The notes under the pieces are model-generated. The model made no database searches. It was not told the DNA's origin and saw only the letters and a list, made by a program, of their open reading frames with translations. A stretch of 1,434 nucleotides of DNA from Escherichia coli (GTDB lineage Bacteria > Pseudomonadota > Gammaproteobacteria > Enterobacterales > Enterobacteriaceae): assembly GCF_003334385.1 (NCBI RefSeq), contig NZ_QOWN01000112.1, one strand, 5' to 3'. Within the stretch, counting starts at the first letter, position 1; each line of letters opens with the position of its first letter. Shown here piece by piece: positions 1-1,418 of this stretch. The position numbers and the translations under genes are program-made.

Positions 1-77
1 AACGCGAGGCATCGTCTTAACGAGGCACCGAGGCGTCGCATTCTTCAGATGGTTCAACCCTTAAGTTAGCGCTTATG
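1..77 (-). mobile_element. Partial end of an IS186-like (IS4-family) insertion sequence. The 23-bp terminal inverted repeat is at 55-77 with the tip at 77 abutting cynT; the element body continues beyond the left window edge.
   Basis: Positions 55-77 are the reverse complement of CATAAGCGCTAACTTAAGGGTTG, which I recall as the IS186 terminal IR. Positions 1-79 are the perfect reverse complement of 1356-1434. The CynT reading frame departs from the expected protein exactly at the tip. The subterminal 1-54 is not recognisable as a host gene. Confidence 0.6.
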
Positions 78-605
78 GGCGATCCGCCCCTCTTCGAGCG
101 CCAGGCGCACCGATGGATGAGTTTGCAAATTAGCCAACTGAGCAATGACGTTTTCACGTACCATCGCCGCAGCTTTTGACGGTAAATCGGAATGCGGGCG
201 CGCCTCATTAACGACGCGGGCTGAATCGGCATAACGCAGCCAGTGGGAGACGGCAGGCATATGGTCCATGCACTGACAGCTGGCAATGGCGGTCATCGCG
301 CCACAGTTGGAATGACCACAAATCACAATGTCAGATACCCGAAGCGCAGCGACGGCATACTCCACCGAAGCAGAAACGCCACCGGGTTCCGGCCCGTAGG
401 AAGGGACGATATTGCCCGCGTTGCGAATAACGAACAGATCGCCAGGCTCACGTTGCGTCACCAGCTCAGGGACCAGACGGCTGTCGGAGCAGGAGATAAA
501 AAGTGTGCGCGGGCTTTGCTGTGTCGCCAGCTGTTTAAACAAGGCTTCCCGCTTCGGAAATGCCTCGCGCTGGAATTTAAGGAATCCATCAATAATCTCT
601 TTCAC
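66..605 (-). CDS. cynT: Beta-class carbonic anhydrase CynT, 3'-truncated by the element junction (probable pseudogene). Native codons span 78-605 (176 codons); the last three codons (His-Lys-Arg) and the stop at 66-68 are read from the element end.
   Basis: The translation [30 protein letters not shown]... matches E. coli CynT as I recall it up to ...LALEEGRIA, then diverges (expected continuation LHGWVYDIESG..., full length about 219 aa). Zinc-ligand motifs CSDSR and HSNCG are retained. The start codon is GTG at 603-605 (- strand) with an AGAGG Shine-Dalgarno about 6 nt upstream (+ coordinates 611-615). Confidence 0.88.
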
Positions 606-713
606 CGTTAACCTCTGTCTGTCTCTGGAATGAGAGGCAGACTACTCGCCGATTGTCATAAGGTAAAAGTCTCATTTATGATGAGTTCCATTGGATTTAC
701 TTATAGGTTGCGA
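606..713. promoter_or_regulatory. cynR-cynT divergent intergenic control region (108 bp), expected to hold the overlapping divergent promoters and the CynR operator.
   Basis: The region lies between the divergent start codons of cynT (605, -) and cynR (714, +). LysR-type regulators typically bind in such regions and autoregulate. It is AT-rich relative to the flanking coding DNA. Confidence 0.55.
653..682 (+). promoter_or_regulatory. Candidate sigma70 promoter for cynR: -35 TTGTCA (653-658), 18-bp spacer, -10 TATGAT (677-682). It overlaps the dyad TCATAA (656-661) / TTATGA (676-681), a possible CynR operator half-site pair.
   Basis: Hexamers match the consensus TTGACA/TATAAT at 5/6 each with 18-bp spacing. 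The predicted transcription start is about 25 nt upstream of the cynR ATG at 714. The 6-bp inverted repeat with 14-bp spacer overlaps the promoter, as expected for LysR autoregulation. Sequence inspection only. Confidence 0.3.
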
Positions 714-1418
714 ATGCTCTCTCGACATATCAATTATTTTCTTGCCGTGGCTGAACATGGCAGCTTCACCCGTGCCGCCAGTGCGTTGCACGTCTCCCAA
801 CCTGCGCTTTCCCAGCAGATTCGCCAGTTAGAGGAGAGTTTAGGCGTGCCGCTGTTTGACCGTAGCGGGCGAACGATTCGTCTCACTGATGCAGGAGAAG
901 TCTGGCGACAGTACGCCAGCCGGGCGTTACAGGAACTGGGGGCGGGTAAACGGGCGATTCATGATGTTGCCGATCTGACGCGAGGATCGCTGCGTATCGC
1001 CGTCACCCCCACCTTTACGAGCTACTTTATCGGCCCCTTAATGGCGGATTTCTATGCGCGCTATCCCAGCATCACGCTCCAGCTACAGGAAATGTCGCAG
1101 GAGAAAATCGAGGATATGCTTTGCCGCGACGAGTTGGACGTTGGGATTGCCTTCGCGCCTGTGCATTCGCCGGAGCTGGAGGCAATTCCTTTACTGACAG
1201 AAAGTTTAGCGTTAGTCGTGGCGCAACATCATCCGCTGGCCGTCCATGAACAGGTGGCGTTGAGTCGCTTGCATGATGAAAAACTGGTCCTGCTCAGCGC
1301 GGAATTTGCCACCAGAGAGCAAATTGACCACTACTGCGAGAAAGCGGGGCTACATCCCATAAGCGCTAACTTAAGGGTTGAACCATCTGAAGAATGCGAC
1401 GCCTCGGTGCCTCGTTAA
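714..1418 (+). CDS. cynR: LysR-family transcriptional regulator CynR (cyn operon activator), 3'-truncated by the element junction (probable pseudogene). Native codons span 714-1358 (215 codons), followed by a 19-aa tail ([19 protein letters not shown]) and stop at 1416-1418 read from the element end.
   Basis: The translation from ATG 714, [50 protein letters not shown]..., is a typical LysR N-terminal helix-turn-helix and matches E. coli CynR as I recall it through ...[10 protein letters not shown]. The expected continuation is QVVIEANSISAV..., full length about 299 aa. An AGG lies 6-9 nt upstream of the ATG. The ORF-track start at 630 is an in-frame upstream extension that I reject. Confidence 0.88.

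Follow-up and report, generated by a model that had tools for sequence, protein, structure and literature searches.

Two inverted IS186 ends interrupt cynT and cynR on a repeat-bounded Escherichia coli contig

The window analyzed here, that is, the whole stretch of 1,434 bp of Escherichia coli DNA, contains two divergent open reading frames (ORFs), cynT and cynR, located between the arms of a terminal inverted repeat (positions 1-79 and 1356-1434; 100% complementary). The native DNA occupies positions 78-1357, which refines the earlier boundaries. Because this native part is 100% identical to E. coli K-12 MG1655 (over 77-1357), the breakpoint observations described below are not due to chance. 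The divergent control region between the two genes (606-713, no strand) is intact and shows the same 100% identity to K-12 MG1655. A promoter-like site upstream of cynR (653-682, plus strand) has a match of 10/12, with a site count not above that in shuffled sequences; the scan of the window for promoters and terminators returned nothing above the shuffle expectation, and the Rfam scan of the window gave no match. Two ORFs antisense to cynT, 243-611 (plus strand, 122 aa) and 412-633 (plus strand, 73 aa), were treated as spurious antisense ORFs, which are expected in G+C-rich coding DNA.

The element at both ends of the window is IS186, a member of the IS4 family. The reference used for its identification was the K-12 MG1655 record, in which IS186A, IS186B, and IS186C are annotated as IS186 with the insL transposase gene. 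Positions 1-77 of the window and the reverse complement of positions 1358-1434 each match the last 77 nt of IS186A/B/C with 100% identity. When the window end is compared with the opposite end of the element (its first 77 nt), 41 positions differ, all of which lie outside the 23-bp terminal repeat shared by the two ends of the element. Given the match to the last rather than the first 77 nt, both window ends correspond to the transposase-distal end, and the two IS186 copies are therefore inverted with respect to each other, with their transposase-distal ends facing inward. Copy 1 (1-77, plus strand) extends leftward past the window, with insL reading toward the window, and copy 2 (1358-1434, minus strand) extends rightward past it. 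Exact copies of the 23-bp terminal inverted repeat CATAAGCGCTAACTTAAGGGTTG are found at 55-77 (as the reverse complement) and at 1358-1380. The window includes 77 of the 1,339 nt of IS186 at each end, the transposase gene being located outside; elsewhere, loci sharing these junctions contain a 1,339-bp element that encodes a 370-aa product of the PF01609 (DDE_Tnp_1) family. In K-12 MG1655, IS186A and IS186B (loci L021 and L022/L024) each adjoin a hok toxin locus, these neighbors being hokC/mokC and hokE together with the antisense RNA sokE.

On the cynT side, the truncated gene for the beta-carbonic anhydrase CynT (66-605, minus strand) consists of native codons 1-176 (78-605) followed by a short HKR-stop extension (66-77) whose codons (CAT AAG CGC TAA) come from the IS186 terminal repeat. 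The first-pass annotation had estimated that CynT keeps about 176 of about 219 residues and ends in an element-encoded HKR-stop; alignment to the reference CynT of 219 aa (the intact gene of the complete genome L001) shows this to be exact to the residue, residues 1-176 of the 179-aa product being identical to the reference. The Pro_CA domain, which spans residues 34-189 of the reference, lacks its last 13 residues, and the window product is a truncated CynT rather than a complete member of this family. The lost part includes the motif LHGWVYD, which aligns to LHGWIYR in 5swc, the closest solved beta-carbonic anhydrase structure. Retained are C39, D41, R43, H98, and C101, which we take to be the zinc-binding and catalytic set, having assigned them by reading the sequence in the light of general knowledge of beta-carbonic anhydrases. 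Another ORF on the cynT strand (17-286, minus strand), in a different frame, ends in the same 19-aa tail as the cynR ORF. As had been suggested, this tail is the inverted repeat read in frame; the possibility that it represents a shared domain was rejected, the tail being the translated end of IS186.

On the cynR side, the truncated gene for the LysR-type activator CynR (714-1418, plus strand) consists of a native part at 714-1357 (214 codons and 2 nt) and an IS186-derived tail with the stop codon at 1358-1418. The ORF starting from the true ATG at 714 encodes 234 aa, of which residues 1-215 are identical to the reference CynR of 299 aa (the intact gene of the complete genome SCU-104, L002) and are followed by 19 aa encoded by IS186; the program call of a 262-aa ORF (630-1418) is longer owing to an in-frame ATG upstream of the true start. 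The first base of IS186 serves as the third base of codon 215 (ccc, Pro), and the native codon at this position, cca, also specifies Pro. Thus, the first-pass estimate of about 215 residues out of about 299, plus a 19-aa tail, likewise proved exact. The HTH_1 domain (residues 4-62 of the reference) is retained in the truncated product. The LysR_substrate domain (residues 88-290) is cut at residue 215, with 75 of its 203 residues missing, in agreement with the earlier placement of the lost portion in the effector-binding region; here, too, the window encodes a truncated protein as opposed to one with a complete domain. Residues 63-299 are included in 2hxr and 3hfu, the solved structures of the CynR effector domain.

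The possibility that CynT and CynR naturally occur as short isoforms was considered and rejected: the reference proteins have 219 and 299 aa, and IS186 was present at the site in every examined locus with a product ending at these positions.

The target sites were examined using a motif derived here from the three K-12 copies of IS186: each of these copies lies in GGGG-N6-CCCC, with the 10 bp GG-N6-CC duplicated on its two sides. In cynT, the target is GGGG-cggatcg-CCC (GGGG-N7-CCC), of which 11 bp are duplicated; the inner copy of this duplication is found at 78-88 of the window (no strand) as ggcgatccgcc, the reverse complement of ggcggatcgcc; the latter sequence is present on both sides of IS186 in L003, which has a simple insertion at the same cynT site. 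In cynR, the target is GGGG-ctacat-CC (GGGG-N6-CC), and the duplicated 10 bp are ggctacatcc, the inner copy of which occupies 1348-1357 (no strand); this sequence is found on both sides of IS186 in L001, L011, and L013-L017. Both sites fit the IS186 motif, the window showing the inner copy of each duplication. Only three GGGG-N6/7-CC sites, on either strand, are present in the reconstructed, uninterrupted 3,356-bp cynX-cynR region, and two of these are the insertion points in the window; the cynT site is the sole GGGG-N6/7-CCC site in the 8-kb locus. The two target duplications also explain why the inverted repeat measures 79 rather than 77 nt. The arms consist of 77 nt of IS186 and a GG/CC pair contributed by the ends of two different target duplications, and as each duplication has GG at its start and CC at its end, two bases are complementary by accident. 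This additional pair arises from the palindromic nature of the G/C target motif. The motifs in the window agree with the consensus target and hot spots published for IS186 (SaiSree et al. 2001, as cited in PMC3045373 and PMC3861542). The type I-E CRISPR repeat gtttatccccgctggcgcggggaacacccc, which adjoins the far side of IS186 in SCU-104 (see below), fits the same motif.

Each of the two junctions recurs in public genomes. The cynR junction (copy 2) is present in the same orientation in 10 of the 5,426 complete E. coli genomes, where the flanks are 98.5% to 100% identical, a range that points to several genomic backgrounds. In four further complete genomes, the match at the cynR site ends right after the 23-bp terminal repeat; both of the two that were checked, RM14721 (L025) and STEC367 (L026), have IS186 inserted at this same nucleotide of cynR in reverse orientation (3138-5390 in these loci). 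In RM14721, the IS186 transposase is annotated as frameshifted, and in STEC367, lacY directly adjoins cynX, with no lacA annotated. Hot-spot behavior of IS186 and its insertion in either orientation have been described (PMC3045373, PMC3861542). The cynT junction (copy 1) was found in 1 of the 5,426 complete genomes, SCU-104, and also in L003-L010, a set made up of another NCBI assembly and several metagenome contigs of gut type. Among the matches listed, the exact chimeric products were found on 72 contigs for the truncated CynT and on 53 for the truncated CynR. Public alleles with a single insertion include those of E308, RM10410, and EC416 for cynR and those of SCU-104 and GCA_037022815.1 for cynT. 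RefSeq annotates the interrupted genes as pseudogenes "missing C-terminus," beside an "IS4-like element IS421 family transposase." IS186 disruption at these sites is thus ordinary and already documented, involving a known element, known behavior, and recorded sites, and the cynR and cynT sites are natural IS186 hot spots that are recurrently used in unrelated E. coli lineages. The two junctions together were found in none of the 5,426 complete E. coli genomes, 72,556 plasmids, and 50,697 phages, and two exact-junction scans of JGI metagenome contigs detected neither of them. Co-occurrence of both junctions in one genome is therefore documented by the window contig only. In the exact-product look-up, the longest contig was shorter than 2 kb in 100 of the 140 blocks for the truncated CynT, compared to 8 of the 103 blocks for the truncated CynR, an excess that might conceal many short double-junction contigs.

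The extent of the window itself appears to reflect sequence assembly. A k-mer-based de Bruijn assembler that follows a unique contig into a multi-copy repeat stops k nt inside the repeat. The IS186 sequence at each end of the window is exactly 77 nt long, and other public short-read contigs with these junctions end 136-137, 125, 51, or 202 nt inside IS186, those ending at 136-137 nt bearing k141 MEGAHIT names. Given the 77 nt at both ends, we read the window as a whole short-read contig that was most likely produced by a k=77 de Bruijn assembly and broken in the multi-copy repeat. It follows that the window carries no information on the DNA past either IS186 copy.

Taken together, these observations lead us to propose, with a probability of roughly 0.85, that the window is a repeat-bounded contig from a single genome in which IS186 inserted twice, into cynT and into cynR, with a consequent loss of cyn function. 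The identity of the element is directly seen, as are the breakpoints, the target motif, and the fact that each junction recurs elsewhere; that both insertions are on one chromosome, that both are simple, and that function is lost appears probable. Under this scenario, IS186, through its DDE transposase InsL, would have moved by cut-and-paste into two GGGG-N6/7-CC(CC) sites, duplicating 10-11 bp at each, one insertion falling between codons 176 and 177 of cynT and the other in codon 215 of cynR, and would have left two inverted copies with the transposase-distal ends inward.

What lies past the insertions can be gleaned from the relatives. In L001, which has the cynR insertion, IS186 is followed by the remainder of cynR and then codA; in L003, which has the cynT insertion, it is followed by the remainder of cynT, with cynS, cynX, and lacA next in line. 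Simple insertions with matching duplications were found in L001, L003, L011, L013-L017, L025, and L026. Since in these relatives the missing 3' parts, as well as cynS and cynX, are located just past IS186, the genes are interrupted but not necessarily deleted. The earlier statement that both genes lose their C-termini accordingly holds for the translated products but does not necessarily extend to the DNA.

An alternative, which we consider unlikely, is that one or both IS186 copies subsequently recombined with other copies, by inversion or deletion, such that the truncated cynT and cynR genes form an isolated island, with cynS, cynX, and lac, or the 3' part of cynR together with codBA, located elsewhere or lost. 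There are precedents for this in 2 of about 20 related loci. In SCU-104 (2700-4080), the far side of IS186 at the cynT junction is the CRISPR repeat beside iap/cysD, and there is no target duplication, which implies that two IS186 copies recombined and that a large rearrangement took place. In L012 (GCA_047262435.1; 5645-10134), a gene for a 1,064-aa invasin/intimin-like protein replaces the 3' part of cynR and codA past IS186 at the cynR junction, which is another IS186-associated rearrangement. Hence, IS186 copies at the cynT and cynR sites sometimes mediate larger rearrangements at a later stage. Against such an event here, most of the related loci show a simple insertion flanked by matching duplications; the window itself is neutral in this respect. 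A rearrangement beside either IS186 copy does not change the verdict on cynT and cynR.

Less likely still is an assembly artifact, in which two strains or sub-populations with one insertion each were stitched into one contig. In line with such a mixture, both of the single insertions are common among public sequences, and the double one has been seen nowhere else. However, the assembly graph of a mixture would be expected to fork at each junction on its native side rather than 77 nt (k) inside IS186, an argument that draws on general assembler behavior and the k-dependent ends of other contigs.

Turning to the consequences of the double insertion that we favor, the cyn biology is based here on a secondary source, PMC6627978, and on general knowledge. 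According to that source (with reference to Sung & Fuchs 1992 and Lamblin & Fuchs 1994), CynR is a positive LysR-type regulator of the cyn genes. Having lost a third of its effector-binding domain, CynR would be expected not to activate the cyn promoter, and CynT would lack both its C-terminus and a core strand. Provided that the insertion in cynT is simple, 1.3 kb of IS186 would separate the cyn promoter from cynS and cynX, with insL pointing away from cynS. The expected outcome is that neither cyanase nor the cyanate transporter is inducible. Because of the loss of the activator CynR and the polar insertion in cynT, the cyn operon is very probably non-functional in the source strain, as judged from the published cyn biology, and the strain would be scored as cyn-negative, with no use of cyanate as a nitrogen source and no induction of cyanase. 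This prediction could be modified by an outward promoter in the left end of IS186, which might drive cynS.

One or the other of the two lesions should suffice to abolish the induction of cyanase by cyanate, which would make its counterpart functionally redundant; such redundancy is more in line with a mutational hot spot than with selection. We regard as very improbable the notion that the IS186 insertions recurring in cynR and cynT in unrelated E. coli lineages reflect not only a mutational hot spot but also selection for silencing of the cyn operon (for example, as a guard against cyanase-driven bicarbonate depletion), or that the IS186 pair constitutes a mobilizable unit carrying the cyn control region. 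Least credible of all is a composite transposon, in which the cyn fragment (1.28 kb) would move as a unit with the inverted IS186 copies on its two sides: inverted IS4-family copies around a short segment do match the architecture of Tn5 and Tn10, and the terminal repeats are the same at both ends of IS186, making the outer ends usable in principle, but an IS186-flanked cyn fragment was found on none of the 72,556 plasmids, 50,697 phages, and 5,426 complete genomes, with no instance of the whole unit at a new site in these sets, the fragment has no selectable function, and both junctions are at their native chromosomal positions, as fits insertions in situ. The plasmid matches are F' lac-pro plasmids with intact cynT-cynR; in seven of these (H91-H97, from K-12 laboratory strains, 213-242 kb), the cynT-cynR segment is 100% identical to positions 77-1357 of the window, so that a strain carrying such an F' plasmid could have another, uninterrupted copy of the cyn genes. 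The contig is to be read as a repeat-bounded fragment and not as a composite element, and its importance beyond annotation is small.

Among known systems, the composite transposons Tn5 and Tn10 resemble the window in having two inverted IS4-family copies around a short segment, but the segment in the window is at its native chromosomal position and has neither functional cargo nor signs of movement as a unit. With the public cynR::IS186 and cynT::IS186 alleles, the window shares identical junctions and chimeric products; those genomes have one insertion or the other, whereas the window has both. The remaining parallel is the lon promoter, where an IS186 insertion is reported in E. coli B/BL21 and in many evolved K-12 lines. 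In contrast to that hot spot, the targets in the window are inside two cyn coding sequences rather than in a promoter, and two insertions, 1.28 kb apart, are found on one contig. Unlike in the lon comparison, we know of no selected phenotype for the cyn IS186 insertions. The hot spot for IS186 at the lon promoter was reported by SaiSree, Reddy & Gowrishankar in 2001 (J Bacteriol 183:6943). The cyn sites resemble it in the identity of the element, in the G/C-run target, in the inactivation of the affected gene, and in the independent recurrence of insertions at the exact same nucleotide, in either orientation.
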